A stretch of 64,000 bases of DNA from Vicinamibacterales bacterium (GCA_035495555.1 DATJFQ010000042.1:75893-139892), one strand, 5' to 3'. Counted from the first letter of the stretch, positions 3,707 through 21,070 are shown. The notes: generated by a model not told the origin, from the sequence alone. Translations and numbers: made by a program.

Positions 3707-3721
3707 GTCTTCAGTCCTTTC

Positions 3722-4681: not shown

Positions 4682-4697
4682 ACCGCTCGCGAAAGTC

Positions 4698-4777: not shown

Positions 4778-4831
4778 ACGGCCGCCACGATGGCGGCGTC
4801 GTCTTATGAGGCGTATACTGGAAAATCCCTT

Positions 4832-5563: not shown

Positions 5564-5580
5564 GCTACAATCCTCCGGGA

Positions 5581-6288
5581 ATGGGCAGTCCACCGATGGT
5601 CCGGCGCGGCGAATACGCCGCGCGCGGCGAGTATCATCGTACGCCTGACCCCGCCTGGGACTACTATCCGACCTATATCGCGAAGCTCGAGGCGGTGCGC
5701 GGGTATCTGGACGCACTGCCCCGAGGCTCGCGCGTGCTCGACGCCGGGTGCGGCGAAGGGGTGCTCGTCTCCGAGTACGCGGATCGGCTCGAGATCTCCG
5801 GTGTGGACGCCAACTATGCGTCTGATCGCGTGATGCACGGCTCGGTGACCGCGCTGCCTTTCCCCGATGCGACGTTCGACCGCGCGCTGTGTCTGGACGT
5901 TCTCGAGCACCTCTCGTTCGAGGACCAGCCGCGCGCGCTCGGTGAGCTGCATCGGGTCCTGAAGCCTTCAGGCGAACTGCTCGTGTCGGTCCCCAACCTC
6001 GCGCACCTGCAGTCGCGCGTGCAGTTCGCGCTGCGGGGGCGGCTGATTCGCACTGCCTCAGAACTGAAGCACCCCGGCGATCGGCCCGCGGGCGAGTACA
6101 TGGCACTCGGGCGGCGCGCAGGGTTCAGGCTGGTCCGACGCGCCGGCATCTTCCCCACTGTTCCGGTCATCACGCATTACATCCGGCGGCACCCGAAGGC
6201 GCTCGCTCCGCTCCATCGCCTGCTGACGCGAGCACTGCCGGTTCCGGGGTGGTGCTTCCTGAACCTGCTCTTCTTCCGCAAGGGATAA
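5581..6288 (+). CDS. Class I SAM-dependent methyltransferase
   Basis: VLDAGCGEGV motif I, followed by LDVLEHL and LKPSGELLV motifs. Confidence 0.8.
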   Translation: MGSPPMVRRGEYAARGEYHRTPDPAWDYYPTYIAKLEAVRGYLDALPRGSRVLDAGCGEGVLVSEYADRLEISGVDANYASDRVMHGSVTALPFPDATFDRALCLDVLEHLSFEDQPRALGELHRVLKPSGELLVSVPNLAHLQSRVQFALRGRLIRTASELKHPGDRPAGEYMALGRRAGFRLVRRAGIFPTVPVITHYIRRHPKALAPLHRLLTRALPVPGWCFLNLLFFRKG

Positions 6289-6297
6289 GCCGGCCGC

Positions 6298-7950
6298 TTG
6301 GGATCCAGACTTCGCGAGCTCTCGAAGAACATCACGATCTACGGCCTGGGCGACGTGGCGGTCTCGATCGTCAGCTTCTTCCTGCTGCCGATCTTCGTCG
6401 ACTATCTCGACGCGCGCGACTACGGGGTGCTCGCGATCCTCGGCAGCATCGAAGTCGTCGGCAAGATCGTTTTCCGGTTCGGCCTCGACGGCTCCTTCAT
6501 GCGGTTCTTCTACGACTGCGAAGCAGACGAGGACCGCCGGCGGCTCGCAAGCACCATCTTCTTCTTTCTGCTGGCGCTCAACGGAGTCGTGCTCGCGCCG
6601 CTCCTGATCTTCGCCCCGCAGATCGCCTCGTGGCTGTTCGGCACGAGCGGATACACGATGGCGCTGCGCCTGCTCCTCGTGAACACGTTCGCGATCGGCT
6701 TCACCTTTCTCCCCTTCCACGTGCTGCGCATCGAGCGGCAATCGACGATTTTCAGCGCGCTCACGCTCGCACGATCGGTGATGACGATCGTGCTCCGCGT
6801 CGTCTTCGTCATTTTTCTGCGCATGCACGTGACGGGTATCTACCTCGCCGACGTGCTCGTGACCGCGTGCGTCATGGTTGCGCTGGCGAAGTGGTTCGCG
6901 CCGCTGATCCGGCCTGTGTTCTCGTGGGCGACGCTGCGGGAGACGCTGGCGTTCGGACTGCCCCGTGTGCCGCACGCAGGGGCGCAGCAGGTCATGGCGG
7001 TCGGCGACCGCTTCATCCTGAACATGTTCGCAAAGGTCGACGAGGTCGGCATCTATCAGATCGCCGTCTCGTTCGGCCTGACCGAGAAGCTGTTCCTGAG
7101 CGCGTTTGAGTCCGCATGGGCGCCGTTCTACTACGCGACGGTGAAGGACGCCGACGCCCGCCGCGTATTCCGCACCGTGACGACGTATGGATTCGCGGTC
7201 CTCGTGCTGCTCACGGCGGGGTTGTCCGCGACCGGGCGGGACCTGGTGGAGGCCATGACGCACGGCCGGATCATGGCGCCAGCGGATCCGCGCTGGGCGG
7301 ACGTGGCGACCGTCATCACGTGGACCGCGGTCGGCGTGCTGCTGCAAGGCGTCTATCTCTTGACGTCGATCGGCCTGAATCTCACCAAGCGGACGCAGTA
7401 TTACCCGATCGCGACAAGCATCGCGGCCGCGACGAACGTCGGCCTGAATTTCCTGCTGATTCCGCGGTTCGGCATGGTCGGGGCGGCATGGGCCAACGGC
7501 GCGTGCTACGCCGTGCAGGCGCTGCTCGGCTATCTGTTTTCGCAGCGGTTCTACAACATCTCGTACGAGTGGGGCCGCCTGGCACGAGTCGCCGCAGCAG
7601 GCCTGATTGCGACGCTGGCTGCACATGCGCTTCCCGCTGTCCGCCTTGCCTCCGTGGATGCGCGGTCGGTCATGGCGGCGCTTCCCGACGCCTTCGCACG
7701 CGGCATCGTCGTCATCGCTGTCTACGTCGCATTGCTCGCCGCGACAGGGTTCCTGCGCGCCGAGGAATTGAGAGCGGTGCGCGCCATGTGGCGGCGCCAG
7801 CGTACGCCGCGGGTCGCAGGGACGCCCGACAGTACCGAACTGGCGGGGGCGATCGTCGCAACCGATGTCGTCGCGACGGCCGATGACGTGGCGATCGAGG
7901 AGAGCGGCGAACAGCCGTCAGCGTTGACAGCCGGGAGCCGGCGGACGTGA
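6298..7950 (+). CDS. Polysaccharide/oligosaccharide flippase (MOP superfamily, Wzx-like)
   Basis: 550 aa with many TM segments. The N-terminus LSKNITIYGLGDVAVSIVSFFLLPIFVDYL is typical of the Polysacc_synt family. TTG start. Confidence 0.75.
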   Translation: MGSRLRELSKNITIYGLGDVAVSIVSFFLLPIFVDYLDARDYGVLAILGSIEVVGKIVFRFGLDGSFMRFFYDCEADEDRRRLASTIFFFLLALNGVVLAPLLIFAPQIASWLFGTSGYTMALRLLLVNTFAIGFTFLPFHVLRIERQSTIFSALTLARSVMTIVLRVVFVIFLRMHVTGIYLADVLVTACVMVALAKWFAPLIRPVFSWATLRETLAFGLPRVPHAGAQQVMAVGDRFILNMFAKVDEVGIYQIAVSFGLTEKLFLSAFESAWAPFYYATVKDADARRVFRTVTTYGFAVLVLLTAGLSATGRDLVEAMTHGRIMAPADPRWADVATVITWTAVGVLLQGVYLLTSIGLNLTKRTQYYPIATSIAAATNVGLNFLLIPRFGMVGAAWANGACYAVQALLGYLFSQRFYNISYEWGRLARVAAAGLIATLAAHALPAVRLASVDARSVMAALPDAFARGIVVIAVYVALLAATGFLRAEELRAVRAMWRRQRTPRVAGTPDSTELAGAIVATDVVATADDVAIEESGEQPSALTAGSRRT

Positions 7951-9677
7951 AGAGACGCACCGGCCGCGAGGCTGCGGCGGTCCTCGTGACGATCGTGGCG
8001 CTCGCGGCGGCGCTTCGGTTGTGGGCCGTGTCGTACGGCCTGCCCGCGATTTTCAATCCCGACGAAATCCCGATTCTCAGCCGAGCGCTCGCGTTCGCGA
8101 AGGGAGATCTGAATCCGCACAACTTCCTGTATCCGACGCTGTACTTCTACGCGCTGTTCGTCTGGGAAACGCTGTATTTCGTCGTGGGACGCGTCGCTGG
8201 CCTCTACCACTCCGTCGCGGACTTTCAGAACGCGTTTTTCGTCGATCCGTCGCGCCTCGTCCTCGTCGGCCGCACGCTGACCGCGGCATTCGGGGTCGCG
8301 AGCGTCGTTGCGGTGTACGAGGCCGGCCGCCGATTCTTCGACCGGCAGGTCGGGATCGGAGCGGCCCTGTTCCTCGCGGTCGCGCCGTTCGCCGTGCGCG
8401 ACGCGCACTACGTGAAGCTCGACGTTCCGACCGCCTTTTTCGTGACGCTGGCGTATGCCGCGCTCGCGCGGCTCGTCGTCGGCGACCCAGGCGGTCCCGC
8501 GTCTCGGCCGTGGTCGTGGGTGCTCGCCGGGTATATCGGCGGCCTGGCGATGGCATCGCACTATTACGCGCTCTTCATCTGTGTGCCTTTCGCGGCCGCC
8601 GCGGTTATTCAGGGAGAGCGAACCGGCAATTGGCGCGCGGCGGCCGGCCTGCTCCTCGCCGCCGCGCTCGGCACGATCGCGGGGTTCGTCACTGGCTGTC
8701 CTTTCTTCTTCGTCGAGCCGCGGACGGCAATGCGCGACATCGCAGGCGTGCGTCAAGTCGACATCGATCGCGCGGTCGGCTCTGCGCAGGGCGCGTTTCC
8801 AACGCTCGACGTGTACTTCCACATGCTTTGGACCGACGCGATCGGCTGGCCCGTGTTCGCGGCTTCGCTGCTCGGCCTCGCCACCGCCGGCTGGCGGCGC
8901 AGTCTCGTCCTGGTGAGCTTTCCGGTTGCGTTCCTCGCCTTTATCGGTCACACGGTGCCGGAAAGCCGCTACCTGAACGTGCTGCTGCCGGTGATTGCCG
9001 TCGCCGGCGCCGCCGGTGTGGTCTGGACGCTGCGCCGTCTGCGTGCTGCGACTGTCCCGGCGACCGCAGCCGCGTTCCTGCTCTGCGCCACTCCGGGGCT
9101 GCTCCTCAGCGCCCGCTCGGATCGCTTCTTCCTGATGCGAGATACGCGTGCACTGGCAGCCGATTACATCGTGGAGCACGTCGCGCCGGGCGCCTCGATC
9201 CTGATCCAGCCATATAGCGCACCGCTCGCTCGCACGCGCGAGTCCATCATCGAAGCGTTGCGGCGCCACCTCGGCTCGGAGACCTCGGCGTCGATCAAGT
9301 TTCAGTTACAGCTCTCCGCCACCCCGTATCCTTCGCCGGCGTACCGGCTCATCTACCTCGGCGATGGCGGTGACGATCCCGACAAGATCTACGTGTCACC
9401 TCGAGCATTCCACGACGATTCACTGACACCGATCCTGACGCTTGGAGTGGATTACGTGGTGCTGAAGCGGTACAATATCGACAATCCAGCTCTGGGTCCC
9501 CTCGAGTCGGCTCTTCGGCAGCATGCGACGCTCGTGACGACGGTCTCGCCGTATCGGGCCGATGCGAGCGCCGCGGAGCGGGCGGCAACGGCTCCGTTTC
9601 TCCACAACACGGCGGCGCGCATCCAGCCCGCGCTCGAGCGCCCCGGACCAATCGTCGACGTCTGGCAGATCAAGTAA
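7947..9677 (+). CDS. GT-C membrane glycosyltransferase, GT39/ArnT-PMT-like
   Basis: GTGA start/stop overlap with the flippase. LRLWAVSYGLPAIFNPDEIPIL carries the DE motif in the first loop. Polytopic N-terminal half plus a soluble C-terminal domain. Confidence 0.65.
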   Translation: MKRRTGREAAAVLVTIVALAAALRLWAVSYGLPAIFNPDEIPILSRALAFAKGDLNPHNFLYPTLYFYALFVWETLYFVVGRVAGLYHSVADFQNAFFVDPSRLVLVGRTLTAAFGVASVVAVYEAGRRFFDRQVGIGAALFLAVAPFAVRDAHYVKLDVPTAFFVTLAYAALARLVVGDPGGPASRPWSWVLAGYIGGLAMASHYYALFICVPFAAAAVIQGERTGNWRAAAGLLLAAALGTIAGFVTGCPFFFVEPRTAMRDIAGVRQVDIDRAVGSAQGAFPTLDVYFHMLWTDAIGWPVFAASLLGLATAGWRRSLVLVSFPVAFLAFIGHTVPESRYLNVLLPVIAVAGAAGVVWTLRRLRAATVPATAAAFLLCATPGLLLSARSDRFFLMRDTRALAADYIVEHVAPGASILIQPYSAPLARTRESIIEALRRHLGSETSASIKFQLQLSATPYPSPAYRLIYLGDGGDDPDKIYVSPRAFHDDSLTPILTLGVDYVVLKRYNIDNPALGPLESALRQHATLVTTVSPYRADASAAERAATAPFLHNTAARIQPALERPGPIVDVWQIK

Positions 9678-9680
9678 TCG

Positions 9681-10907
9681 ATGCAGTTGCGCCGCCGTCT
9701 CAAGGAATCGCTCGCCCGCCGTGCACGCGGCACGCGTGTGCTGACGCACGCCTGGGCGCGCTACCGCCGGCAGCGCTACGAGCGGCGCATCGCGAAATTC
9801 GTGGAAGCAGGCTCCGGCAGGGCCGACCGCCTGCCGATGGGGGCGGTCTACGAGGCGACGATGCGGTGCAACCTGCACTGTGAGTTCTGCTACGTGGGCG
9901 ACCTGCTGAACATCGAAGGCGAGTGGCGCCAGGAACTCACGCTGGAACAGCTCGAGCGTGCCTTTCCGGCTCGCGAAGACCTGCAGGTGAGCCTCACGGG
10001 CGGCGAGATCTTCATGCGGAAGGATATCCTGTCGGTCCTCGATCTCTTCCGCCGGAAGGGGTATGCCTGCGGCTACCTGACGACGAACGGGACGATCATC
10101 TCCGAGGAGCGCGCGGAAGCGCTGGCGGATCTCGCGGCGCAAGGCTTTCTCAAGCACATCAGCGTATCCGTCGATGGCCCCCGGGAGCTCCACGACGCAG
10201 CTCGCGGCGTGAAAGGCACGTTCGAGCGGACGTGCACGGGATTGCGCCGCCTCCAGCAAGCGGCGCGGCGCAAAGGTGCGCCGCTGCGCGTGTCGATCAA
10301 CACGACGGTGGCGCACGAGAGCCTGGAGGCCCTCGACACGATGGTCGATGTCGCCGAAGAACTCGGTGTCGATGCCATCGGGTTGAACCATCTGATGTTC
10401 AGCACGCCGGAGGAAGTCGCCGAAACGGTGCGATTGACCGGCGCGACTGACGCATCGCAGATCGCGACGTTCGTCACGCCTGATCCGGGACTCGACATCG
10501 CCCGCGTGCGCGCGCAGGTCGGCGCGCTCGAACGGCGGTGCCGCGAGCGCGGCATCCTCTTCGACTATCGCCCGAAGGTGCATCAGCCGCTGGTCGAGAA
10601 CTACTACACGCCGGGCACCCCGATGGCCGGCCGCTGCCTGTATCCGTTCCTCCACGCGCGTGTGTCGTTCTCGGGCAAGGTCTACTTCTGCCCGTTCATC
10701 CGGGTCGAGGTCGGCGATCTGGCCACATCGACGCTCGAAGAGGTCTGGAACGGCGACAAGTTCGTCGATATGCGCAAACGGCTCCTCGACAACGGCCTGT
10801 TTCCGGTGTGCCGCCGCTGCTGCAAGGTGGAACTCGCGCCGGAACCGCTTCCCCGCCCCGCCGTGGCCGCGCCGCGCCGGGCCATCCCGCTCACGGTGGT
10901 GCGCTGA
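9681..10907 (+). CDS. Radical SAM enzyme with SPASM-type C-terminal domain
   Basis: CNLHCEFC radical SAM motif. C-terminal CLYPF...CPFIRVEVGDL...VWNG...CRRCCK. Confidence 0.8.
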   Translation: MQLRRRLKESLARRARGTRVLTHAWARYRRQRYERRIAKFVEAGSGRADRLPMGAVYEATMRCNLHCEFCYVGDLLNIEGEWRQELTLEQLERAFPAREDLQVSLTGGEIFMRKDILSVLDLFRRKGYACGYLTTNGTIISEERAEALADLAAQGFLKHISVSVDGPRELHDAARGVKGTFERTCTGLRRLQQAARRKGAPLRVSINTTVAHESLEALDTMVDVAEELGVDAIGLNHLMFSTPEEVAETVRLTGATDASQIATFVTPDPGLDIARVRAQVGALERRCRERGILFDYRPKVHQPLVENYYTPGTPMAGRCLYPFLHARVSFSGKVYFCPFIRVEVGDLATSTLEEVWNGDKFVDMRKRLLDNGLFPVCRRCCKVELAPEPLPRPAVAAPRRAIPLTVVR

Positions 10908-10909
10908 CG

Positions 10910-12400
10910 ATGCTCGGACGTCGAACGCTGCTCGTCAACCCGCCGCTGGTCAACGGCATCGCGTTCACCCGCCAGGGCCGCTGCCAGGAGCGTGAGGAAG
11001 TGCTCGGCACCACGAAGCCGCCCTACACGCTCGCGGTGATCGCATCACTGCTGCGCCAGAACGGCTGCGACCTGCGTCTGGTGGATCTCACGGCGCAGCG
11101 GCGGACCCCCACTGACCTGATTGCCGACCTCGATGCCGAGGGCTTCATCCCGACGCTCATCCTCTTTCCCAGCACGACGCCAACGCTCGCGGCCGATGTC
11201 GCGGCGATGGCGGCGCTCAAAGCGCGCTACAACGCGCCGATGTTCTGCTTCGGGCCGCACGCCTCGACGACGCCGCAGCAGTCGATGCTGCGCGCTCCCG
11301 ACGTCGACGGCATGTTCGTCGGCGAGCCCGAGGACGCGGCCGTGCAGCTCGCCATGCTCGAATCGATCGACGCGTTGCCCGCCGTGGCGAGCCTCACATG
11401 GCGCCGCGCAGGCACGATTTTCCCCAATACGGCCCACGGCTCGTACGGCGGATTTCTCTCGATGCCGTATCCATCGTGGGATCTGGTACCGCTGAAATCG
11501 TACTCGCTGCCGCTCGTCAATCGGCCATACGTCATCGTCGAAACGAGCCGCGGATGTCCCTACTCCTGCGACTTCTGCGTCGCGCCGATTCATCAGGGCC
11601 ACAAGTTCCGCGAACGCAGCGCAAAGGCGCTCGTCGACGACATCGAGCGAGGCTATCGCGAGTTCGGCATCGACTTCTTCTATCTGTGGGGCGACACGGT
11701 GACGCTCAACGTCAAGAGCTTCACCGCGTTCTGCGACGAGCTCATCGCGCGGAACCTGCCCATCCAGTGGTTCGGAAACGCGCGCGCGGACAACCTCACG
11801 GATCCGGCGTTTGTCCACCGCCTGCGCAAGGCCGGCTGCTGGATGCTCGCGCTCGGCATCGAGACCGAGTCGGAAGACATCCGTAAGAACATGGTGAAGC
11901 GGCTCGAGCGCCAGAAGATTCAGACCGCGTTCCGCAACATGCGCGAGGCGGGGATCAGGTCGTTCGCGTTTTTCATCTTCGGGTACCCCGGCGAGACGAT
12001 CGACACGATGGATCACACCGTCGACTACGCCATCGAACTCGACCCCGATTTCGCGAACTTCTACCCGGCCGTTCCTTATCCCGGCACGGCGCTCTACGCG
12101 AAAGCGGTGCAGGAAGGCTGGCTGGTCGAAGAAGACTGGTCGCGGATGGAGTACTCGTTTTACCTGATGAACGGCAACGGCCTCGACGAACGCGTCGTGT
12201 TCGACGCGATCAATCGCGCCAAGCGCCGGTTCTTTCTGAGGCCGTCCTATGTGGCGCGACGGCTCGGCGACGTCGTGAAGCTGATGGCGACCAAACCCGC
12301 CATCGTGCGGCAGGTGCTCGCACGCGCGATCTTCGGGACGCGAGTGCCGGCGCCGCCGCGTGCTGAAGCCGTCAGCCCTGGCGGCGCGGCCCGAATCTGA
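10910..12400 (+). CDS. B12-binding-domain radical SAM enzyme
   Basis: ATG at 10910 lies 2 nt after the upstream stop. The N-terminal LLVNPP...PPYTLAVIASLL resembles a B12-binding domain. CPYSCDFC radical SAM motif. The track ORF starting at 10538 is over-extended. Confidence 0.75.
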   Translation: MLGRRTLLVNPPLVNGIAFTRQGRCQEREEVLGTTKPPYTLAVIASLLRQNGCDLRLVDLTAQRRTPTDLIADLDAEGFIPTLILFPSTTPTLAADVAAMAALKARYNAPMFCFGPHASTTPQQSMLRAPDVDGMFVGEPEDAAVQLAMLESIDALPAVASLTWRRAGTIFPNTAHGSYGGFLSMPYPSWDLVPLKSYSLPLVNRPYVIVETSRGCPYSCDFCVAPIHQGHKFRERSAKALVDDIERGYREFGIDFFYLWGDTVTLNVKSFTAFCDELIARNLPIQWFGNARADNLTDPAFVHRLRKAGCWMLALGIETESEDIRKNMVKRLERQKIQTAFRNMREAGIRSFAFFIFGYPGETIDTMDHTVDYAIELDPDFANFYPAVPYPGTALYAKAVQEGWLVEEDWSRMEYSFYLMNGNGLDERVVFDAINRAKRRFFLRPSYVARRLGDVVKLMATKPAIVRQVLARAIFGTRVPAPPRAEAVSPGGAARI

Positions 12401-12407
12401 CTCCGTC

Positions 12408-14240
12408 TTACGGCTCGAAGGTGCCGCCGAGGATCAGCGGACTGTCGGGCGGCAGCCAGTTCCCCTGCCTGCAATACCAGCCTGCCACCGGCGCCGTGCC
12501 GCTGCACGTTCCGTCGTTCGTCGATACGATTAACAAGCTGCCTGGCGGCAGCCAGCCGCCGTTCTGACACACCCACCCGGCGCCGGGCTGCACGGACGTG
12601 CAGGAGCTGGTCGTCGTCGTTGTCGTCGTCGTCGTGCTGCCCGGCGGGAGCCAGTTGCCGTTTACGCACGTCCAGCCGGTCCCTGGCTGCACGCTCGTGC
12701 AGGAGCTGGTCGACGAGGTGGTCGTGGTCGTGCTGCCTGGAGGCAGCCAGTTGCCGTTCACGCACGTCCAGCCGGTCCCTGGCTGCACGCTGGTGCAGCT
12801 CCCCGTTGATCCTGTGCCGCCGGTGCTGGTCGTCGGCGGGAGCCATCCACCATTGACGCATGTCCAGCCCGGACCCGGCTGCACGGTCGTGCACCCGCCC
12901 GTCGTGCTGGTCGTTCCGCCGGTCGTCGTGCTCCCTGGCGGCAGCCAGCCGCCATTCACGCACGTCCAGTCCGCTCCGGGTTGAACCGTCGTGCAGCCGC
13001 CGGTCGTTCCCCCTGTTGAACCGCCGCCCGAGGTCGTGCCGCCGCCACCCGTGTAGCTGCCGCCAGGACCGCCACCGGTGGTTCCCGTTTGAAGGACCAC
13101 TTCACCGATCCCCTGGAACTGGGAGAAGTTGGGGGATCCTGAGCCGCGGCTGACGACGGTGAAGAAGCGGGACATCGTGGCGCTGGCAGCGACCCGCGGG
13201 TAGCGGACCGGATTGAAGCCGGTCGAGAGGGTCTGATCCGAGCCGAACCGGACGCCGCTTGCGTTCAGCTCCGCCACATGCAGTTCATCGGATCCGTCGA
13301 TTCCAACGATTGCGGAGGTGCCGCTGTTGCGGTTGTAGGCGATCGCCAGCGCGTCGTAGGACCCGAAGTTCGCGGCCGTGCCAAACCCGATGAGACCGCC
13401 GCTGTTGTCGAACTCCGCCACCTTGGCGTTTCGCGTGCCGGCCACGTCCTGATACCACGCCATGAGGTAATGCTGCGTCGAGGAATTGAACGCCACGTCC
13501 GTCATGAAGGCCTTGGCGCCGGAAAGAGAATTGAAGGCGGTCCGGCGGAACCCGGACGGATTGGATGCGGGAACGATCGCGAGCGCGGATGACAAGCCGT
13601 CGTTATCGCTGATCGAGACGCCGAATTCGTCTCGGACCGAATTCCATGCGACGCTGGGGTTTTCGCCCTGGCCCGCGGAGACGGTCACCGGCCCCGTCAG
13701 CGTGCTTCCGTCCCCCGCGAGGAGCTGAACTTGCGTGATGTGCGTGATCGTCTCGTACGCGACAAGAAACTTTCCGGAGGTTCGCGAGAAATCGATCCCT
13801 GGCCCTCGTTCGCCGTACGGTGATGCGCCCGAAACCGTCATGGTCGTCCCCATCGCACCTGATGGACACGCAATGGTCCGGGCTTTCAGGAGCATTCCGC
13901 TGGTCTGCTCTTCCGGCCAGACGACGAGGAAATTCCCGGCGTTCGGATTGAATCTCGCGCGCGGGAACGAACCGAACGGATGTCCCTGCGCAGGCTTCAT
14001 GAGGACGGTTCCGCTGGCGACACCATCGGAGCCGATGCACTGCGCGTAAATGTAGTCGACCCCGCCGACGATCAGCCCCCCGCCCGACTCGTCGTGCGCG
14101 ACGTCCACGCCTCGGATGAAGGTCGAAAGCGTGGTGAGGGTGTTCACCTTGCTGATTTGCGCAAACGACGGCGCGGACAGCAGGGCCATGGCCCCGATCA
14201 GCATCAGAGTGACGCGGCGAAATTGCACAGGCTGCTCCAT
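12408..14240 (-). CDS. Secreted protein: N-terminal beta-propeller-like region plus six C-terminal Cys-pair mini-domain repeats with Thr/Gly/Ser linkers
   Basis: Signal peptide RRVTLMLIGAMALLSAPSFAQ. Recurrent blade-like motifs (FLVVW, FLVAYE, PSVAWN, YLMAWY). Six copies of C-x4-P-x-x-GW-x-C-x-x-G-x-WLPP. Confidence 0.8.
   Translation of the reverse strand: MEQPVQFRRVTLMLIGAMALLSAPSFAQISKVNTLTTLSTFIRGVDVAHDESGGGLIVGGVDYIYAQCIGSDGVASGTVLMKPAQGHPFGSFPRARFNPNAGNFLVVWPEEQTSGMLLKARTIACPSGAMGTTMTVSGASPYGERGPGIDFSRTSGKFLVAYETITHITQVQLLAGDGSTLTGPVTVSAGQGENPSVAWNSVRDEFGVSISDNDGLSSALAIVPASNPSGFRRTAFNSLSGAKAFMTDVAFNSSTQHYLMAWYQDVAGTRNAKVAEFDNSGGLIGFGTAANFGSYDALAIAYNRNSGTSAIVGIDGSDELHVAELNASGVRFGSDQTLSTGFNPVRYPRVAASATMSRFFTVVSRGSGSPNFSQFQGIGEVVLQTGTTGGGPGGSYTGGGGTTSGGGSTGGTTGGCTTVQPGADWTCVNGGWLPPGSTTTGGTTSTTGGCTTVQPGPGWTCVNGGWLPPTTSTGGTGSTGSCTSVQPGTGWTCVNGNWLPPGSTTTTTSSTSSCTSVQPGTGWTCVNGNWLPPGSTTTTTTTTTSSCTSVQPGAGWVCQNGGWLPPGSLLIVSTNDGTCSGTAPVAGWYCRQGNWLPPDSPLILGGTFEP
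12411..12995 (-). repeat. In-frame tandem coding repeats (six units of about 96-102 bp) within the secreted protein gene
   Basis: Units 12603-12701 and 12702-12797 are near-identical at DNA level (ccagttgccgtt[t/c]acgcacgtccagccggtccctggctgcacgct...). Confidence 0.9.
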
Positions 14241-14435
14241 CTACTCAAACCGCGGACTCGAGTGCCGCGGATTCAGGCGCGTTCCGGTTATCGACAGGTG
14301 GGGAACAGATCTTTAGCCAGGCAGAAGCCTGGACACTCGGACGTCCTGACAGGACCCACATCCAGCCCTGCCATTCGACATCTCCTGGTGACTATAACGG
14401 AGGAAACGCTTCATTTCCAAGCGCAAATTCGTGTG

Positions 14436-15605
14436 TCAGCGGGTCAACGTGAGAATTCTGGCGGCAGCCTGAACTCTGGCGAGTGCATCCCCGCCGTGCA
14501 GCAGTTGCCTGAGTGCCGTGAGGTCGCTGGCCGTCAGCACTTCGGGGAGGGCCCGGGTCGCCATCTCGCGGATGGCAATATTTGGATCCGCCGAAGCCGC
14601 TTCCAGGACGCGCTTTGCGGATTCGGGGTCGTGAGGCGCCAGCAACCGTGCAGCCTGCACCCTGATTTCGGGCTCGGGCGACGACGTCAGGTCCCGCACG
14701 AGCGACATCCACGTGGGGTCGGGCGAGGTGGACATTGCTTCGGCCGCCGCAATCCGGCCGGAGGGGATGTCGCCGGCCGCGAGCTGCTGCAGCAGCGGCA
14801 GGCCGCTCATGTCCCCCAGCCGGAACAAGGCACGGGCGGCGTGCGTCCGGACAAACGCGCTCGAGTCCGAGAGAAGCGTCCTGAGCACGCCGATCTGATC
14901 GTCGGCGTGGAGTTCCGCCAGCGCGTCGGCGACGGACGCACGCACTTCGTCTCGCGGATCGGTCGCCTGCGCCGCGATGGCTGGCAGCGCCGACCGCCGG
15001 CGGCTCTGACCGAGCGCTTCGACGATCCGAGCCTTGTCGGGATTGCCCGCCGCGAGCTGCCCGCTCAGCTCTCGCACCGCCTGCGCGCTTCCGAGCGCCG
15101 CGAGCGTGCGCGTGTTCGCGGGAAGGGTTGACGCCTCCAGGGCCGACACGGCTTCCTGCTGTCCATCCTCCGCAAGCGCCCGCAGCGCTTCGAGGCGCAC
15201 CTGCGTATCCGATTGCTGGCTGCCCGCTTCGTGGAGCACCGCGCTGCCAATCCGCCGCAGCACTGCCGGCTCTTCGTACGGGCGGCTCCCCAACCACTGC
15301 TCGTATTGCGCGATCCCGTTCGACGCCCCCCCGCGCGCGATCGCCGCCTCGACGCCCAGCGACAAGGCTGCCGCGCTCCGCGGATAGCGGACGAGCACCT
15401 CGTTCGCCTTCCGATACGCGTCGTCGACAAGGCCCTGCGACAGCAGAGCCCACCCGTTCGTCAGCAGAATCGCTTCCGTCGAAGCGCTTCCCGGCGCCGG
15501 CTTCTGCTGGTTACGCGTGCGCGACGCGGGCGTCGATTGCGCAGCGGGGGCGGCACCGGCGATGAGAGCCGAAAGCGTAAGGGCGACGCAACCTGACAAC
15601 GTCAT
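14436..15605 (-). CDS. Secreted HEAT/TPR-like repeat protein
   Basis: Start chosen at MTLSGCVALTLSALIAGAAPAAQ (signal peptide). Repeated Ala/Leu-rich helical units with DP..VR motifs typical of HEAT repeats. Confidence 0.6.
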   Translation of the reverse strand: MTLSGCVALTLSALIAGAAPAAQSTPASRTRNQQKPAPGSASTEAILLTNGWALLSQGLVDDAYRKANEVLVRYPRSAAALSLGVEAAIARGGASNGIAQYEQWLGSRPYEEPAVLRRIGSAVLHEAGSQQSDTQVRLEALRALAEDGQQEAVSALEASTLPANTRTLAALGSAQAVRELSGQLAAGNPDKARIVEALGQSRRRSALPAIAAQATDPRDEVRASVADALAELHADDQIGVLRTLLSDSSAFVRTHAARALFRLGDMSGLPLLQQLAAGDIPSGRIAAAEAMSTSPDPTWMSLVRDLTSSPEPEIRVQAARLLAPHDPESAKRVLEAASADPNIAIREMATRALPEVLTASDLTALRQLLHGGDALARVQAAARILTLTR

Positions 15606-15636
15606 GTGGTACGAGTTCAGACGACTGCGGCGGCAA

Positions 15637-16395
15637 TCAGGCCGGTGACAGCCGCCGGTATTCGCGGCGCGCGCGATGCCGCTCGCGCCATCGCACGCGG
15701 TACAAGCTGCGCAATTGCAGCAGATAGCCGAGCGCTTCACGGGTGCTCATCTTGCTCTCGCCGGCCTCGCGATCGTCGAAGCGATACGGCACTTCGACCA
15801 GGCGATGCGGCCACGCGCGCACGATCAGCTCGAGACAGATTTTGAAGCCGCCGGCGTGGATCTGCACCCCTTCCGCAACTTCGCGGCGCAGCAGAAAAAA
15901 GCCCGATGCGGCGTCACGAATCGGCGACAGCGGCCGTGCGAGCAGGCACGCGGCCCGTGAGAGCACCTTGCGGCGGAGCGGCCAGTCCGGCGTGCTGCCG
16001 CCGGGCACGTATCGGCTGGCGACGACGAGATCGGCCCCCGTCGCACGCTGCGCCGCAAGGAGTTTCGGCACGAGGGACGGCGGGTGGCTGAAATCGGCAT
16101 CCATGACGCCCAGAATCGGCGCGGCCGCCACGTCGAATCCCGCTACGACGGCGGTGCCGAGCCCGAGCTTTCCCGTCCGATGGACGACCCGAATGCGTCG
16201 GGTGCGGGCGAGATCGTCCGCCAGCGCACCAGTGCCGTCGGGTGAGTTGTCGTCGACGATGACGAGTTCGAGATCGAGCCCGGCGTCACGGGTGACGGAA
16301 AAGAGGGCATCGACGAGCTCGCCCAGGCGCTCACGCTCGTTATAGGTTGGAATGACGATCGTCAGGTCCGGCGCGCCCGGCGTCGGAGAAGGCAC
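15637..16395 (-). CDS. Polyprenyl-phosphate mannose (or related hexose) synthase, GT2 Dpm1/Ppm1-like
   Basis: LTIVIPTYNERERL, VIVDDNSPDGTG, VMDADFSHPP and ASRYVPGGS motifs match the DPM1/Ppm1 family. GTG start. Confidence 0.8.
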   Translation of the reverse strand: MPSPTPGAPDLTIVIPTYNERERLGELVDALFSVTRDAGLDLELVIVDDNSPDGTGALADDLARTRRIRVVHRTGKLGLGTAVVAGFDVAAAPILGVMDADFSHPPSLVPKLLAAQRATGADLVVASRYVPGGSTPDWPLRRKVLSRAACLLARPLSPIRDAASGFFLLRREVAEGVQIHAGGFKICLELIVRAWPHRLVEVPYRFDDREAGESKMSTREALGYLLQLRSLYRVRWRERHRARREYRRLSPA

Positions 16396-16430
16396 GACGT
16401 ACTATAATTCATGCGCCCGCACCACTCTGC

Positions 16431-18104
16431 ATGACCGCGCGCGCCCGTTCGTTCGTTCCAGTGCTGCTCGCGCTCGTGGCTTTGGGCGCGGTGCTCCGCA
16501 CGGCGTGGCTTCGCGCCGACCCGCCATGGTTTCCCACCGTCGGCATTATCTGGCATGACGAAGGCGCGTGGGTGCACAACGCACGCAACAAGGCGTTGTT
16601 CGGCGCCTGGCGGGAGGACGAATGGAATCCGATGTACGTGGCGCCGGTGTTCACGGTCGCCGAGTACGCCTCGTTCAGCGCCTTCGGCGTCGGCACGTGG
16701 CAGGCGCGCCTCGTGTCCGCCGTGGCGGGGACGATATCGATTGCGCTGCTCGCGCTCGGCGTGCGCCGGCTCGCCGGGACGTCGGCGGGCGCTATCGCCG
16801 CAGCGCTCCTGGCGACGGATTACGTTTACGTCATGTACGACCGCGCCGCGATCATGGAGGCGCTGATGGTCGCGTGCATCGTTGCCGCCTGGTGGGCGTC
16901 GACGAGGGCGGAAGACCGACCGGAATGGGGTGCGCTGGCAGGCGTGTTGGCGGCGGCCGCGTACTTCACGAAGGCGGCTGCAGCGTTCTACGTAGCCGCG
17001 CTCGCGATTGCCGCTGCGTGGAGTCTCCTTCGCCCGCGCGTCAGCCACGAACGAAAAGCCGCGGTGTGGACGATCGCGGGCCTGGCGGTGGCGTTCGGCG
17101 CTGCAGCCCTCTTGTTCGTGCTGCCGCACTGGACGGACTATCGCTTCTACAACTGGCAAATGTCGGTCACCCGGAAACCGTCGTACGATCTCCGGTCGAT
17201 CGTGACGCGAGTGTCCTGGTTCCCGATTCTCCACGATCAGTTCTCGCGCACGTGGCTGATCGTAGTTGTCGGCACCTTGGGCGGGTGGTCGATCCTGGTC
17301 CGATGGGCGCGGGCGCTGACGTCCGAACGCCTGCTGCTGCTGTGGCTGGCCGTCGGAATCGCCGAGCTGCTGGTGCACGACGTCGGCAACGAACGGCGGT
17401 TCGTGTTCCTGATCCCGGTGCTCATCGCGATCACCGCGATCGTGCTCGCGCGAGGCAAGGGCCTGCTCCCGGAAGACGTCCGCCTCGTCTCCTCGAAGAC
17501 GGTGTGGCTGCTGTCGCCCGCCATTCTCTACAGCGCGTACATCGTCTGCGGACCCGTCGCACGGCTTGCGTTCATTTACGAGGTGAAGGAGGAAGCGCGG
17601 CTCTCCGGGATTCTTGGAGTGGCGCTGGGGCTGGTGGTGCTCGTATTCTGGGAACGGCTCGCCGTATGGCTCAGCGCGGGCCGCTGGTCCACCCGGGTTG
17701 CGGCCGCCCTCACCGCGGCGCTCGTTGGCGCAAACCTCGTCGAGTTCACGCAGTACGCCATGCGGCGCACCTACAAGAACTATTACGCGTCGGTGGAACT
17801 CGGGCGGGTGCTCCCGCCAGGCACTGAAGTGCAGGGAAAACTCGCGAACGGGCTCGCGCTCGAGAATGGCATCCGTCCCATCTTCATCGGCCACGGTTTC
17901 GGGAACTTCGCGGACCGGAAGCGGCGCGAAGATGTGCGGTATATTTTGACGTATACAGCGCCAGCGCTCGGCTACGAAGGGTCCCAAATCGAGGATGTGC
18001 TCGCCGCATATCCGGGCTGGCGGGTCATCATGAGCTTCGACGTCGCAGAGACTCCGTCCGGACACGATCGCGCCGCATTGATCGACAAGCGTGCGGGTCA
18101 TTGA
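16431..18104 (+). CDS. GT-C membrane glycosyltransferase, GT39/ArnT-PMT-like
   Basis: LRTAWLRADPPWFPTVGIIWHDEGAWVHNARN carries the DE loop motif. It has more than 10 TM segments. It is divergent from the Dpm1-like gene across 35 bp. Confidence 0.7.
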   Translation: MTARARSFVPVLLALVALGAVLRTAWLRADPPWFPTVGIIWHDEGAWVHNARNKALFGAWREDEWNPMYVAPVFTVAEYASFSAFGVGTWQARLVSAVAGTISIALLALGVRRLAGTSAGAIAAALLATDYVYVMYDRAAIMEALMVACIVAAWWASTRAEDRPEWGALAGVLAAAAYFTKAAAAFYVAALAIAAAWSLLRPRVSHERKAAVWTIAGLAVAFGAAALLFVLPHWTDYRFYNWQMSVTRKPSYDLRSIVTRVSWFPILHDQFSRTWLIVVVGTLGGWSILVRWARALTSERLLLLWLAVGIAELLVHDVGNERRFVFLIPVLIAITAIVLARGKGLLPEDVRLVSSKTVWLLSPAILYSAYIVCGPVARLAFIYEVKEEARLSGILGVALGLVVLVFWERLAVWLSAGRWSTRVAAALTAALVGANLVEFTQYAMRRTYKNYYASVELGRVLPPGTEVQGKLANGLALENGIRPIFIGHGFGNFADRKRREDVRYILTYTAPALGYEGSQIEDVLAAYPGWRVIMSFDVAETPSGHDRAALIDKRAGH

Positions 18105-18936
18105 CGAACGCGCCATCAAGGCGCACGCGGATCTGCGTTTCCGCTCCGAATACGATTACGCGCTGTTCGAGTACTACCGCAGCGCCAAGGTGATCGCCTT
18201 TCTCGAACGCGCCGGCGTTCGCCTGCATGGCGCGGTGCTCGACGCCGGGTGCGGCGGCGGGGGCATGCCGCTCTCGCTCGCCGAAGAGGCGGGCCCGGTG
18301 GTCGGCATCGATCCGATCAACCGGTTCGGCGACGCAGGCGTTCGGCTTGCGGCGGAGCGCGGGCTCACGAACCTGCATTTCGCGCTCGCGGACGGCATGC
18401 AGTTGCCGTTCCCGAAGGGTGTCTTCGATCTCGTGCTGTCGCACGCGGTGATCGAGCATGTGGCTGACGCGCCTCTGTATCTGCGCGAGTGCGCGCGCGT
18501 CCTCGCGCCGGCTGGACGCATCTATCTGTCGACGGCGCCGTATCTGTCGTTCGCGGGCGCTCACCTGCCGAGGCTGAAAGTGCCGGTGCCGCTGCATCTC
18601 CTCGTGGGCCGCCGGCTGGCGTTCAGCACCTTCCGCGCGCTGGCGCGGCACGCCACGTGGGCCTTGCGCGAGCCGGCAAACGAAAATTCGTTCATCAAGC
18701 TCGCCCGTCGCGGGGAAAGCAAGGAAGACGACCTGCTCGAAAAGGTGCGCGTCGCGCGTTTGCGGCGGCAGATCGCGGGCGCGGGACTGCGGATCGTCCG
18801 GGAGGAGCTGAACGTCACGGCGACGGTTCGTCGGCTGCCGGCCGCGCTCGCGCGGGCCGTACAGAACAGCCGTTTGATTCAGGACGTGTTCATCAGCAGC
18901 ATGGAATACGTTTTGGCTCATAAGGCACCCGCCTGA
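18091..18936 (+). CDS. Class I SAM-dependent methyltransferase
   Basis: VLDAGCGGGG motif I, plus FDLVLSHAVIEHV and LAPAGRIYLS. Confidence 0.75.
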   Translation: MRVIDERAIKAHADLRFRSEYDYALFEYYRSAKVIAFLERAGVRLHGAVLDAGCGGGGMPLSLAEEAGPVVGIDPINRFGDAGVRLAAERGLTNLHFALADGMQLPFPKGVFDLVLSHAVIEHVADAPLYLRECARVLAPAGRIYLSTAPYLSFAGAHLPRLKVPVPLHLLVGRRLAFSTFRALARHATWALREPANENSFIKLARRGESKEDDLLEKVRVARLRRQIAGAGLRIVREELNVTATVRRLPAALARAVQNSRLIQDVFISSMEYVLAHKAPA

Positions 18937-18937
18937 T

Positions 18938-19981
18938 ATGGCCGACGTCACCCGATACCGCCCGGACGACCGACGCGCCGTCGAAGCGCTCTACCGCCGC
19001 GTCTTCGGCAACGACGCCGCCGAGAGCAGCCGTCTGCGCTGGGAATGGCAGTACCGGCGCAATCCCAACAATCCTGGCGGCGAGCCCGAAATCTGGATCG
19101 CGCGCGAGGGCACGGCGCTCGTCGGCCAATACGCGACCATGCCGGTCAAGCTCTCGGTCAAGGGCGACGAGATCAAGGGGTCCTGGGGGATGGACGTCAT
19201 GGTCGCGCCGGAACGCCAGCGCCAGGGCCTGGGCGAGGTGCTGTTCCGCACGTGGGACCGCAACGTCGGCGCGTCGCTCGGCCTGGGACTGTCCGACGCC
19301 TCGTACCGGCTGTTCCAGAAGCTGCGCTGGCCCGACGTCGGTCCGATCCCGTGCCTCGTCAAGCCGTTGTCAAGGCGCGCGTTCCGCCATCCCCGCTGGC
19401 CGACAGCCATCAATCGCCTCATCTCCGCCGTGACCTTTCCTGTCGTGCTGCTGGTGGCGCGCAGCCGTCCACTGCGCGCGGAGGTGCGGCTCGTGCCCCG
19501 ATTCGACGACAGCTTCACGGAGCTGTGGGACGCGCTCGCTCCACGCTTCGACGTAGCCGTCCGCCGCGACGCCGCATATCTGAACTGGAAGTTCGCGACG
19601 GCACCGCACGTGCGCTATACGATGGCGGCGTTGCTGCGGCAGGGAAAAGTCGCCGGGTATGCGGTGTACCGGCACGTCCACGAACCGCGCGGCCGAGTCA
19701 CACTGCTGGTCGATTTCCTGACGGATCCGGACGACGAGAACGGGTTCACGACGCTGCTCCGCTGGGTGGACCGCGAAGCGCGCGAGGCGGACTCCGACAA
19801 GATCCGCGTCTTCGCGCTCCACGCCGCGTTCCGGCGGCTGCTCAAGAAATCCGGGTACTTTCAGGTGAAGTCCACGATGGAGTTCGTCATCAAGGTGAAC
19901 GACGCAGAAGTACCGCACGACTTTTACGAGAACACCGACGGATGGCACGTAACGCTGGGCGACTCGGATCAGGATCGGTAG
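18938..19981 (+). CDS. GNAT-family acetyltransferase
   Basis: VMVAPERQRQGLGEVLF acetyl-CoA binding motif (Q/R-x-x-G-x-G). 347 aa. Confidence 0.65.
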   Translation: MADVTRYRPDDRRAVEALYRRVFGNDAAESSRLRWEWQYRRNPNNPGGEPEIWIAREGTALVGQYATMPVKLSVKGDEIKGSWGMDVMVAPERQRQGLGEVLFRTWDRNVGASLGLGLSDASYRLFQKLRWPDVGPIPCLVKPLSRRAFRHPRWPTAINRLISAVTFPVVLLVARSRPLRAEVRLVPRFDDSFTELWDALAPRFDVAVRRDAAYLNWKFATAPHVRYTMAALLRQGKVAGYAVYRHVHEPRGRVTLLVDFLTDPDDENGFTTLLRWVDREAREADSDKIRVFALHAAFRRLLKKSGYFQVKSTMEFVIKVNDAEVPHDFYENTDGWHVTLGDSDQDR

Positions 19982-20010
19982 GAGACTGCTGAAGAGCGCG
20001 GCAGATAACG

Positions 20011-20105
20011 CCCAACGCCCAATTCCCAAGTCCCAAGCTGACCCCAGCCGGAGTGTCAAGAAACTTGGGAGAGAACTTGGAGTTGGAAGTTGGGAGTTGG
20101 GAATT
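20011..20105. repeat. CCAA/TTGG low-complexity dyad element (intergenic hairpin)
   Basis: Left arm cccaacgcccaattcccaagtcccaag. Right arm cttgggagagaacttggagttggaagttgggagttgggaatt. It ends 6 nt before the ATG at 20111. Confidence 0.75.
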
Positions 20106-20110
20106 TCTTG

Positions 20111-21070
20111 ATGCACCTTTTGGTCGGCATCGATACCGAAGGCGACAATCAATGGGACGCGGCCGCGCGCGCGAACCAGCGGTTCGAGAACATCTATGCG
20201 CTGCCCCGGCTGCATGCCTTGTTCGCACGGCACGGTGTGCGGCCGACGTACGTGATCACCTACCCGGTCGCCACGGATCCCGCGTCGGCGGCGGTGCTGC
20301 GCGATCTGCGCGCGGGCGGCGACTGCGAAATCGGCGCTCACCATCACGCGTGGGAGACGCCGCCGTGCACGGCCGGGGACGTCCAGCGGCATCCCTATGC
20401 CGCCAACCTGCCGCTCGAGCAGTTCGAGGCGCAACTTGCGTCCCTCACTGATGCGATTGCCAGCGCCGTCGGCGCGCGGCCTGTGTCGTACCGCTCGGGC
20501 CGATTCGGCTTCGCAGCGGCTCACGTATCGGCCCTCGAGCGTCTCGGGTATCTCGTCGAATCGAGCGTGGCGCCGTTGTTCTACGAAGCGCACAAGCACG
20601 GTCCGGATTTCGTCGAAGCGCCGCTGCGGCCGTATTTTCTCGCATACGACAGCGCGACCGCGCCGGGATCCAGCGGCGTCCTCGAGGTACCGGTGTCGGC
20701 GGCGCTGAATCGTCGCTGGCCGTCCGCGCTGCGGTATCTCTACGCGCGCGCGCCGCGTCCGTACACGACCAGGCGCGTGCTCAAGAAGCTCGGCATTGCC
20801 CGAGTACGCTGGCTGCGCCCGTCGTATTCGTCGCTCGACGACATGATTGCCCTCGCGCGGGACCTGGCGCATGCGGGTGAACCCGTCCTGAATCTGCTGT
20901 TTCATTCGAGCGAAGCGATCGTCGGCGGGAGTCCCTATAACCGCACCGAATCGGAACTGCAGGCGTTCTGCGATCGTCTGGAGCGCTTTTTCGAGTTCGC
21001 GCAACGCGGGTTGAAGGCGGCCCCTGCGACGTTCGCGGAATTCCGCGCCGCGTATCTCGCCACCTCGTGA
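20111..21070 (+). CDS. Polysaccharide deacetylase-like (WalW-like) protein
   Basis: MHLLVGIDTEGDNQWD...PTYVITYPVATD...EIGAHHHAWE pattern. ATG at 20111 is preferred over the track start at 20090, which lies inside an intergenic repeat. Confidence 0.55.
   Translation: MHLLVGIDTEGDNQWDAAARANQRFENIYALPRLHALFARHGVRPTYVITYPVATDPASAAVLRDLRAGGDCEIGAHHHAWETPPCTAGDVQRHPYAANLPLEQFEAQLASLTDAIASAVGARPVSYRSGRFGFAAAHVSALERLGYLVESSVAPLFYEAHKHGPDFVEAPLRPYFLAYDSATAPGSSGVLEVPVSAALNRRWPSALRYLYARAPRPYTTRRVLKKLGIARVRWLRPSYSSLDDMIALARDLAHAGEPVLNLLFHSSEAIVGGSPYNRTESELQAFCDRLERFFEFAQRGLKAAPATFAEFRAAYLATS

Follow-up and report, generated by a model that had tools for sequence, protein, structure and literature searches.

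A predicted 20-residue two-cysteine module in six copies on an exported propeller protein of a Vicinamibacterales bacterium, beside a candidate glycosylation locus

Why should an exported protein end in six copies of a unit of only 20 residues, and is it by chance that sugar-transfer genes lie around it? The question is raised by a gene at positions 12408-14240 (minus strand) of a 64,000-nucleotide stretch of DNA, here called the window, from a Vicinamibacterales bacterium (GCA_035495555.1 DATJFQ010000042.1:75893-139892). Sequence comparisons argue that the unit, or module, is a real, mobile and lineage-restricted extracytoplasmic domain, carried in one to ten copies by secreted enzymes and adhesin-like proteins. 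In the product of this gene, hereafter the target, it follows a predicted beta-propeller, and the gene belongs to a conserved locus, so far undescribed, that joins a HEAT-repeat gene, the propeller gene and genes of the GT-C class of glycosyltransferases (GT).

The gene is an uninterrupted open reading frame (ORF) with an ATG start, which codes for 610 amino acids (aa) and lies in DNA of uniform 64-69% G+C. The structure of the full-length protein was predicted with AlphaFold2 (AF2) on an alignment of 91 family members, and the reliability of the models is given as pLDDT (predicted local distance difference test). The gene is composed as follows.

12408-14240, minus strand: whole target gene, an ORF with signal peptide, predicted seven-bladed propeller, linker and six mini-modules; 229 homologues; AF2 mean pLDDT 84.
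14160-14240, minus strand: signal peptide, aa 1-27, MEQPVQFRRVTLMLIGAMALLSAPSFA, likely of the Sec type, read by eye; AF2 helix at aa 6-20.
13041-14159, minus strand: predicted seven-bladed beta-propeller domain, aa 28-400; pLDDT ~95 and Foldseek matches; no Pfam or NCBIfam family.
12996-13040, minus strand: Gly/Thr/Ser-rich linker from propeller to array, aa 401-415, as seen in the sequence; pLDDT <50 at aa 405-414.
12936-12995, minus strand: module 1, CTTVQPGADWTCVNGGWLPP, starting at aa 416.
12834-12893, minus strand: module 2, CTTVQPGPGWTCVNGGWLPP, starting at aa 450.
12738-12797, minus strand: module 3, CTSVQPGTGWTCVNGNWLPP, starting at aa 482; 55/60 nt the same as module 4.
12642-12701, minus strand: module 4, CTSVQPGTGWTCVNGNWLPP, starting at aa 514; the unit type that varies in number among close relatives.
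12543-12602, minus strand: module 5, CTSVQPGAGWVCQNGGWLPP, starting at aa 547, then the conserved hydrophobic linker GSLLIVSTNDGT.
12447-12506, minus strand: module 6, a divergent cap, CSGTAPVAGWYCRQGNWLPP, starting at aa 579, then the tail DSPLILGGTFEP at 12411-12446.

An export signal is predicted, with cleavage, as read by eye, after MEQPVQFRRVTLMLIGAMALLSAPSFA and before Q; only one Arg of the signal peptide is conserved in the family consensus. A pseudogene or an artefact could be ruled out, the ORF being intact and having hundreds of homologues under purifying selection. Two shadow ORFs overlie the repeat array, at 12598-12984 (plus strand, 128 aa) and 12247-12963 (minus strand, 238 aa); the repeat periodicity and the high G+C content give rise to both, and neither is a gene.

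A preliminary description of the window had proposed six tandem mini-domains after a signal peptide and a Gly/Thr/Ser linker, each with two Cys and two Trp. Six units of 20 residues were located there, all fitting C-x4-P-x3-W-x-C-x2-G-x-W-x-P-P, and exactly two Cys and two Trp are present in 6/6. The Thr linkers that it described between them are found at linkers 1-4, which have 12-14 residues of pure Thr/Ser/Gly (e.g. GSTTTTTTTTTSS). These are unlike linker 5 (GSLLIVSTNDGT) and unlike the C-terminal tail (DSPLILGGTFEP), both of which are partly hydrophobic and kept among close homologues. Tandem Repeats Finder reports a 96-nt period across 12537-13007. The near-identity of units 3 and 4 at the DNA level amounts to ~91%: in the module part 55/60 nt are identical and 5/5 differences are synonymous, and in the whole unit 87 of 96/99 nt agree and there is one 3-nt indel. 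Modules 1 and 2 differ by 11 synonymous and 2 non-synonymous codon changes, and other pairs likewise differ mainly at synonymous positions. Since the differences are mostly synonymous, the peptide is under purifying selection and its likeness is not merely a matter of recent origin, although the repeats are in part recent duplications. Nor is the pattern a chance one: a search of all six frames of the 64-kb window gave no further occurrence of the motif.

The copy-number variability that had been anticipated from this duplication is borne out by close relatives. P0001, the closest relative, whose propeller is identical to that of the target at 398/410 positions (97%), has 9 units where the target has 6. 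The two proteins agree in the first two units and in the last two, and the difference is confined to the internal unit, of type CTSVQPGTGWTCVNGNWLPPGSTTTTTSSTSS. The same kind of difference is seen in P0004 (9 units) and P0006 (7 units). The comparison is made at the protein level among sequences that all come from metagenome assemblies, and the 6 versus 9 units could be partly due to assembly collapse of near-identical 96-nt units from short reads.

How far does the module reach beyond this protein? An exhaustive HMMER search with a 20-position profile gave 218 matches among 1.84 billion representative proteins (E<=0.001), many of them in proteins without a propeller. From 706 regex-defined instances, 681 of which (96%) are exactly 20 residues long, the consensus is C-T-T-[VP]-Q-P-G-x-G-W-[VT]-C-V-N-G-[GN]-W-L-P-P. 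Conservation was counted with a hidden Markov model that does not demand Cys, over 1189 complete instances in related proteins: both Cys are kept in 1188 of them, as is W17 (100%). W10 is conserved at 93%, and T2 and T3, among the regex-defined instances, at 62-70%. Because the two Cys are conserved together in 1188/1189 instances, Cys1 and Cys12 most likely form a disulfide that staples a 12-residue loop onto a hairpin. Modules are ~67% identical between proteins whose propellers are 29% identical. Across the family the linkers between modules have 3-39 residues (mode 9), and terminal modules end in a conserved extension, PP-[DG]-H-P-L-A-x-G-G.

Module 1 of the target, modelled by itself with AF2 on an alignment of 125 modules, reaches a pLDDT of 93 across all 20 residues; residues 11-13 and 16-18 form the strands, joined by an Asn14-Gly15 turn. 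In the full-length model each module is again a compact two-stranded hairpin (pLDDT 76-89) and the linkers fall below 50, so that the predicted array resembles beads on a string with disordered linkers between them. The linker between modules 5 and 6 reaches pLDDT 73-81, and therefore these two modules may pack together. No named domain was recognized in the preliminary description, and the database searches led to the same result. Pfam-A (hmmscan) and NCBIfam gave zero families for the whole target protein at E<=10; the module profile against PDB sequences gave only insignificant Sushi-motif matches of 8-9 residues (E 0.1-1); and Foldseek with the single-module model, a tool ill-suited to 20-mers, gave one meaningless match (E 4.6). 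The module appears, then, to be an unnamed family absent from Pfam and NCBIfam.

A second variant of the module was observed, with a 13-residue Cys-Cys loop and without W10: C-x-T-P-D-P-F-x-x-[LM]-G-G-G-x-C-x-x-G-G-W-L-P-P-G-M (128 instances; found in P0158, P0175, P0209, P0227, P0230 and P0242). Only C1, C12, G15, W17 and P19 are common to both variants, which can share one protein.

The carriers outside the target's propeller family are likewise exported proteins with signal peptides and, as assigned by Pfam, include an alginate lyase (Alginate_lyase, P0130), a GH3 beta-glucosidase (P0177), PLDc_2 and glucose/sorbosone dehydrogenase (GSDH) proteins, Pel9A-like and Beta_helix proteins with Big_7 domains (P0194, P0158), NHL and FG-GAP propellers, a 1575-residue S8 subtilase (Peptidase_S8) with Ig domains, and proteins with TIG and Laminin_G_3 domains. 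Their linkers consist of P 24, S 17, G 16, A 12 and T 12%. The module mostly occupies the extreme C-terminus, the last copy ending <=15 residues from it in 131/251. In several proteins it stands elsewhere, either at the N-terminus, next to the signal peptide (P0124, P0125, P0149, P0193 and the alginate lyase P0130), or between folded domains (P0123). When one genome per species was scanned with the pattern (185,579 species), 75 loci were found, nearly all of them in metagenome-assembled genomes (MAGs) titled Vicinamibacterales, Vicinamibacteria or Acidobacteriota, and often several in one genome. Four module-bearing contigs (L025, L031, L065, L075) come from MAGs labelled Actinomycetota or Acidimicrobiia, which means either mis-binning or horizontal transfer; L031 and L065 carry the whole locus described below, with radical S-adenosylmethionine (rSAM) genes ~70% identical to those of the window.

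What could such a tail do? We read the exported target as a propeller head that bears a flexible tail, in which six mini-domains of 20 residues fold autonomously. Each is a predicted beta-hairpin (W-x-C-V, an N-G turn, x-W-L) in which W10 and W17 would pack round the stapled loop on the same face. The array would act as a multivalent, low-affinity binding or tethering tail and would keep its cargo on a polysaccharide of the cell envelope, the matrix or the environment, in the fashion of CBM1/CBM10 or of choline- and cell-wall-binding repeats. An analogy to small carbohydrate- or wall-binding modules had been drawn before, and it fits carriers such as alginate lyase, GH3 and pectate-lyase-like beta-helices.

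The same observations can also be read with the array as a passive stalk, that is, a semi-rigid, protease-resistant and possibly glycosylated spacer that sets the propeller or another cargo at a distance from the membrane or from a further domain and has no ligand of its own. The beads-on-a-string model with disordered linkers would suit a spacer, as would a copy number that varies freely (3-10) and the location of the modules between folded domains in P0123. Furthermore, the two Trp may have a purely structural role in a fold of this size. It should be noted, however, that the array ends most chains, and at a chain end it connects the cargo to nothing encoded in that chain. In addition, conservation of the modules is about double that of the propeller, and ordinary PT/ST linkers suffice as spacers without folded inserts. 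We regard a passive stalk as quite possible but, on balance, unlikely.

The head of the target had been described as a region with propeller-like motifs, and its model agrees with this. Residues 30-400 form an all-beta domain with pLDDT ~95, and the best Foldseek match in the PDB is the seven-bladed propeller YncE of E. coli (3vh0; template modelling score, TM, 0.74), with the Photorhabdus lectins PHL/PLL (5mxf, 6rg2) at TM 0.70-0.71 and probability 1.00. These matches, with TM normalised to the target, cover 340-380 aligned columns at 12-16% identity (14-16% for PLL/PHL), and many unrelated WD40 propellers score near YncE and the lectins. The head is accordingly predicted to belong to the seven-bladed propeller fold class and to no named family. 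A word-indexed search gave 229 relatives, all unnamed or hypothetical and nearly all without a precomputed Pfam domain; the best 120 of the 229 share one plan, a head of ~400 residues with 1-10 modules behind it, in most cases 3-10.

Is the company of sugar-transfer genes a local coincidence? The target lies inside a ~19-kb locus (window ~2744-22203) that also contains an NDP-sugar epimerase/dehydratase, two rSAM/SPASM genes, a B12-binding rSAM gene, two methyltransferases, a Wzx/HfsF-like flippase, two GT-C enzymes of the PMT_2 family, a GT2, a GNAT protein, a deacetylase-like protein and a GT4. On the minus strand the order is GT2, exported HEAT-repeat gene, a 195-nt spacer and the target. 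The neighbours that enter the argument are listed here.

6298-7950, plus strand: Wzx/HfsF-like polysaccharide flippase; Pfam Polysacc_synt, NCBIfam HfsF below cut-off.
7947-9677, plus strand: GT-C glycosyltransferase PMT_2, copy a; PMT_2 42.8 bits, PMT 23.8 bits (cut-off 22.7).
9681-10907, plus strand: rSAM/SPASM gene, convergent with the target.
10910-12400, plus strand: B12-binding rSAM gene, convergent with the target.
14391-14420, minus strand: sigma-70-like promoter match TTGGAA-18-TATAGT, a consensus match only, in the 195-nt spacer upstream of the target gene.
14436-15605, minus strand: exported HEAT-repeat protein; Pfam HEAT_2, E 1e-21.
15637-16395, minus strand: GT2, polyprenol-phosphate-mannose-synthase-like (Ppm1/DPM1-like); Pfam Glycos_transf_2, 5mlz.
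16431-18104, plus strand: GT-C glycosyltransferase PMT_2, copy b; Pfam PMT_2, E 6e-16; in 18/33 propeller loci.

The third radical SAM gene of this glycan locus, of the rSAM/SPASM type, is at 3722-4681 (plus strand). The B12-rSAM gene (plus) and the target (minus) converge with 7 nt between their stop codons, and a simple scan of 12200-16600 for a terminator-like hairpin found none.

The same neighbours are present in the gene tables of relatives at 74%, 41%, 34%, 33% and 31% identity to the target. The link to sugar-transfer genes on which the preliminary description had drawn is thus no local coincidence and is kept in relatives down to ~30% identity. Among 33 propeller loci from the genome scan, a HEAT gene was found in 29, the GT2 in 23, the flippase in 22, the B12-rSAM gene in 21, the SPASM rSAM gene in 19, PMT_2 copy b in 18, a methyltransferase in 17 and PMT_2 copy a in 14. 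Of all neighbours of the propeller family the HEAT gene, which the preliminary description had not mentioned, is the most constant, and it is present also where the other genes of the glycan locus are absent. In 29/29 propeller loci whose upstream flank measures at least 2.5 kb a homologue lies within 10 kb, and in 25 of these it is co-directional and just upstream. The HEAT protein may be a binding partner or an adaptor. None of the locus genes is present at ~30 loci where the module is on other proteins, so that the locus is tied to the propeller family and not to the module.

Loci of two relatives have further genes. In L006 a second array, of nine modules, lies at 5631-7718 (plus strand), directly upstream of the P0060 gene (8001-9758), as an apparent tandem paralogue; its gene call is split (431 aa + 228 aa), a sign of either a frameshift or a faulty assembly. 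Between the HEAT and propeller genes there are also unannotated genes of 797 aa in L003 (5377-7770, plus strand) and 710 aa in L006 (3113-5245, plus strand), in which neither a Pfam match nor a module was found.

The neighbouring genes had been called Ppm1 and GT39. For the first, the GT2 matches the dolichol-phosphate-mannose synthase of P. furiosus (5mlz) with E 2.4e-53 over residues 11-236, and ArnC (1e-16) and the GtrB-like sll0501 (5e-12) far more weakly. Its best NCBIfam matches are polyprenyl-phosphate-sugar synthases, all below cut-off, and the term Ppm1-like is justified because 5mlz is far better than ArnC or a GtrB-like protein. As for GT39, both membrane enzymes match PMT_2 (PF13231) and are therefore GT-C enzymes of that clan, but only the one at 7947-9677 just reaches the PMT model (PF02366; 23.8 against 22.7 bits) and the other does not, so that the assignment to GT39 is marginal.

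In the reading that we favour, the GT2 would make polyprenol-phosphate-mannose and the PMT_2 GT-C transferases would use that donor; through this co-encoded pathway the Thr-rich linkers would receive O-linked sugar, probably mannose, in the periplasm. The exported HEAT protein would be a possible adaptor, and glycosylation would stiffen and protect the tail. A candidate exported acceptor with Ser/Thr-rich disordered regions is at hand, with its predicted signal peptide and poly-Thr linkers. In the streptococcal Pgf and GtrB/PgtC2 systems a GT-A polyprenyl-phosphate-sugar synthase is paired with GT-C enzymes, and disordered Ser/Thr-rich regions outside the cytoplasm become glycosylated; in S. 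mutans the adhesin substrates are encoded within the Pgf cluster itself (PMC12041528). The Ser+Thr content of linkers is 35-39% in the propeller family versus 22% in module-only proteins. Within the propeller family it shows no clear difference with the full locus in cis (35% v 39%), a comparison that tells nothing, since one locus can serve several paralogous copies. Taken as a whole, an exported glycoprotein whose tail binds or tethers it to polysaccharide and whose linkers are glycosylated by the co-encoded pathway has, in our estimation, an even chance of being right. The doubt lies mainly at two points: ligand binding versus a passive stalk, and glycosylation of the protein versus another glycoconjugate.

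Several observations weigh against this composite. The two Trp of a 20-residue fold may serve packing, and conservation is no proof of a ligand site. The PMT_2 genes are not clearly GT39, and the enzymes have no sequence relatives in the PDB at E<=0.01 and no NCBIfam assignment. About a third of the propeller loci have the HEAT gene alone nearby. An all-against-all BLAST of the ORFs at 33 module-only loci gave no recurrent partner, just module genes and shadow frames. The locus follows the propeller family, not the module, and may serve polysaccharide, lipopolysaccharide (LPS) or lipid instead; the propeller protein may then be an accessory factor rather than a substrate of glycosylation.

This last possibility amounts to a separate account, in which the locus builds a non-protein glycoconjugate (an envelope polysaccharide, LPS or a lipid), the propeller and HEAT proteins are periplasmic accessories of assembly or export that bind the product, and the linkers are unglycosylated. 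Its support comes from the further content of the locus, namely the Wzx-like flippase, the GT4 and the epimerase/dehydratase, the deacetylase-like and GNAT proteins, the methyltransferases and the three radical SAM enzymes, and from the likeness of the propeller to lectin propellers. Furthermore, the rSAM products are much better conserved than their neighbours, and by far more so than the target: they are 70-78% identical across loci whose targets are 30-40% identical. The target evolves fast, as exposed proteins do. This account leaves the Ser/Thr-richer linkers of the propeller family unexplained, however, and HEAT-propeller pairs also occur without the remaining locus. We consider it rather unlikely, and it competes with the glycosylation step only, being compatible with the module as a binding domain.

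A further account keeps protein glycosylation and changes its site, the hairpin itself (e.g. Thr2/Thr3 by Cys1) being the recognition element or the acceptor for a domain-specific GT-C mannosyltransferase, with the HEAT protein as substrate adaptor. There would be a parallel in eukaryotes: TMTC1-4 and TMEM260 are PMT_2-like GT-C enzymes joined to helical tetratricopeptide (TPR) repeats and act on folded cadherin or IPT domains. TMEM260, according to PMC10214176, is a protein-specific O-mannosyltransferase for a domain shared by cMET, RON and plexins. The conservation of HEAT, GT2 and PMT_2 genes beside the propeller family and that of T2/T3 (62-70%) are in line with such acceptor modules, but the ~30 loci with the module on other proteins lack the locus, and terminal modules, like the variant with the 13-residue loop, often have P, G or S at positions 2-3. 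C-mannosylation of Trp could be ruled out, the module having no W-x-x-W/C motif. We judge it improbable that the modules are the acceptors.

The strong bias of the module to the extreme C-terminus, its conserved ending (W-[LV]-P-P-D-H-P-L-A-x-G-G) and its diverse secreted cargo within one lineage would also suit a sorting or secretion signal, read by a lineage-specific export or anchoring machinery as are the C-terminal domain (CTD) of the type IX secretion system (T9SS) or PEP-CTERM. We rejected this as very improbable: tandem copies number up to 10, N-terminal copies occur in P0130, P0124, P0125, P0149 and P0193, and there was neither a conserved neighbouring machinery at the module-only loci nor a match to the sorting-domain models of Pfam/NCBIfam. 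Least probable of all, and likewise rejected, is a multi-core precursor of the kind of ribosomally synthesized and post-translationally modified peptides, with Cys/Trp repeats cross-linked by the adjacent radical SAM/SPASM and B12-rSAM enzymes and then released, which would account for two radical SAM genes abutting the 3' end of the target and for weak matches of the SPASM enzyme, far below cut-off, to the peptide maturases WgkB, StsB and AlbA in NCBIfam, but not for a signal peptide and a folded 373-residue propeller in place of a leader peptide, for rSAM genes convergent with the target in an operon with PMT_2 and flippase genes, for their absence from 12-14/33 propeller loci and all module-only loci, or for best matches that are HpnJ/BchE-like and AhbD/NirJ-like rather than peptide maturases. 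In NCBIfam the B12-rSAM protein is HpnJ/BchE-like at ~176 bits, far below cut-off. The two convergent rSAM genes are probably part of the glycan or lipid pathway and not modifiers of the target.

In soil, Vicinamibacteria count among the most abundant bacteria; the lineage is ecologically dominant but little studied, and almost entirely uncultured. The module marks secreted lyases, glycosidases, peptidases and adhesin-like proteins and so offers a handle on how enzymes are retained at the surface or in the matrix. At 20 residues, it is small enough for chemical synthesis and nuclear magnetic resonance and may serve as a minimal binding tag for engineering. The conserved locus, with its enzymes beside a likely substrate, is a testable candidate for protein O-mannosylation outside Actinobacteria. 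Our search of the literature gave no paper joining Vicinamibacteria, glycosyltransferases and secreted proteins, and nothing specific on Acidobacteria with O-mannosyltransferase or GT39. At least two families are missing from Pfam/NCBIfam: one is the module, the other is the propeller along with the HEAT protein that accompanies it. All this amounts to a solid, tractable domain family and a candidate acidobacterial glycoprotein system, and does not overturn current understanding. A bolder proposal can be made, though we hold it tentatively and think it rather doubtful: the hairpin would be the smallest autonomous extracellular binding domain described so far, a new family of CBM-like or envelope-anchor type, and a general tag by which the Vicinamibacterial secretome is retained at the surface or in the matrix, and the HEAT/Ppm1-like/PMT_2 locus a dedicated acidobacterial O-mannosylation system with its own substrate and a helical-repeat adaptor like the TPR of TMTC/TMEM260.

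Finally, the parts of this system can be set beside known ones. The seven-bladed head is like YncE and PHL/PLL (TM 0.70-0.74) but has 12-16% identity to them and shares no family model. Ppm1/Pmt of actinobacteria and PgfS/PgfM1 and GtrB/PgtC2 of streptococci combine a GT-A polyprenyl-phosphate-sugar synthase with GT-C transferases that act outside the cytoplasm on Ser/Thr-rich disordered regions; the candidate counterparts in the locus, a DPM-synthase-like GT2, two PMT_2 genes and a Thr-rich exported protein, are syntenic across the propeller family. Unlike them, it belongs to another phylum, its GT-C enzymes are of PMT_2 type, not YfhO and not clearly GT39, and it has an additional HEAT partner, a flippase and radical SAM genes.

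As for the module, its second half, C-V-N-G-G-W-L-P, mimics the local motif C-x-N-G-x-W-x-P of Sushi/CCP domains. These have ~60 residues and four Cys, whereas the match spans 8-9 residues and there is no Pfam Sushi match; by sequence, the likeness would be a convergent hairpin motif and not membership. With the fungal CBM1 and the bacterial CBM10/CBM5-12 carbohydrate-binding modules (CBMs) it has in common a very small size, aromatic residues and a probable disulfide, a place at either end of enzymes, and Pro/Ser/Thr linkers to alginate lyase, GH3 and pectate-lyase-like beta-helices; the linkers of CBMs are typically O-glycosylated. It differs from CBMs, which have 36-60 residues and two or three disulfides or none, in its 20 residues and single Cys pair, in matching none of CBM_1, CBM_10 and CBM_5_12 in Pfam, in being repeated up to 10x and in its presence on peptidases and Ig/TIG proteins. 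CW_binding_1 (PF01473; LytA, CbpA, the CROPs of clostridial toxins, glucan-binding repeats) consists of hairpins of ~20 residues with Gly-Trp/aromatic positions in arrays of variable length, usually C-terminal, and choline- and cell-wall-binding repeats of this kind tether secreted cargo multivalently to a wall polymer. The module is likewise a predicted hairpin of ~20 residues, in tandem and with conserved aromatics (W10 93%, W17 100%). In contrast to CW_binding_1, it has two invariant Cys and no Pfam match (E<=10), its units are set on low-complexity linkers of 8-14 residues (pLDDT <50) instead of forming a contiguous solenoid without Cys, and its host is a diderm acidobacterium. We place the module outside CW_binding_1, CBM1/10/5-12, Sushi and the sorting domains, the first two of which are those that it resembles in its proposed way of working.

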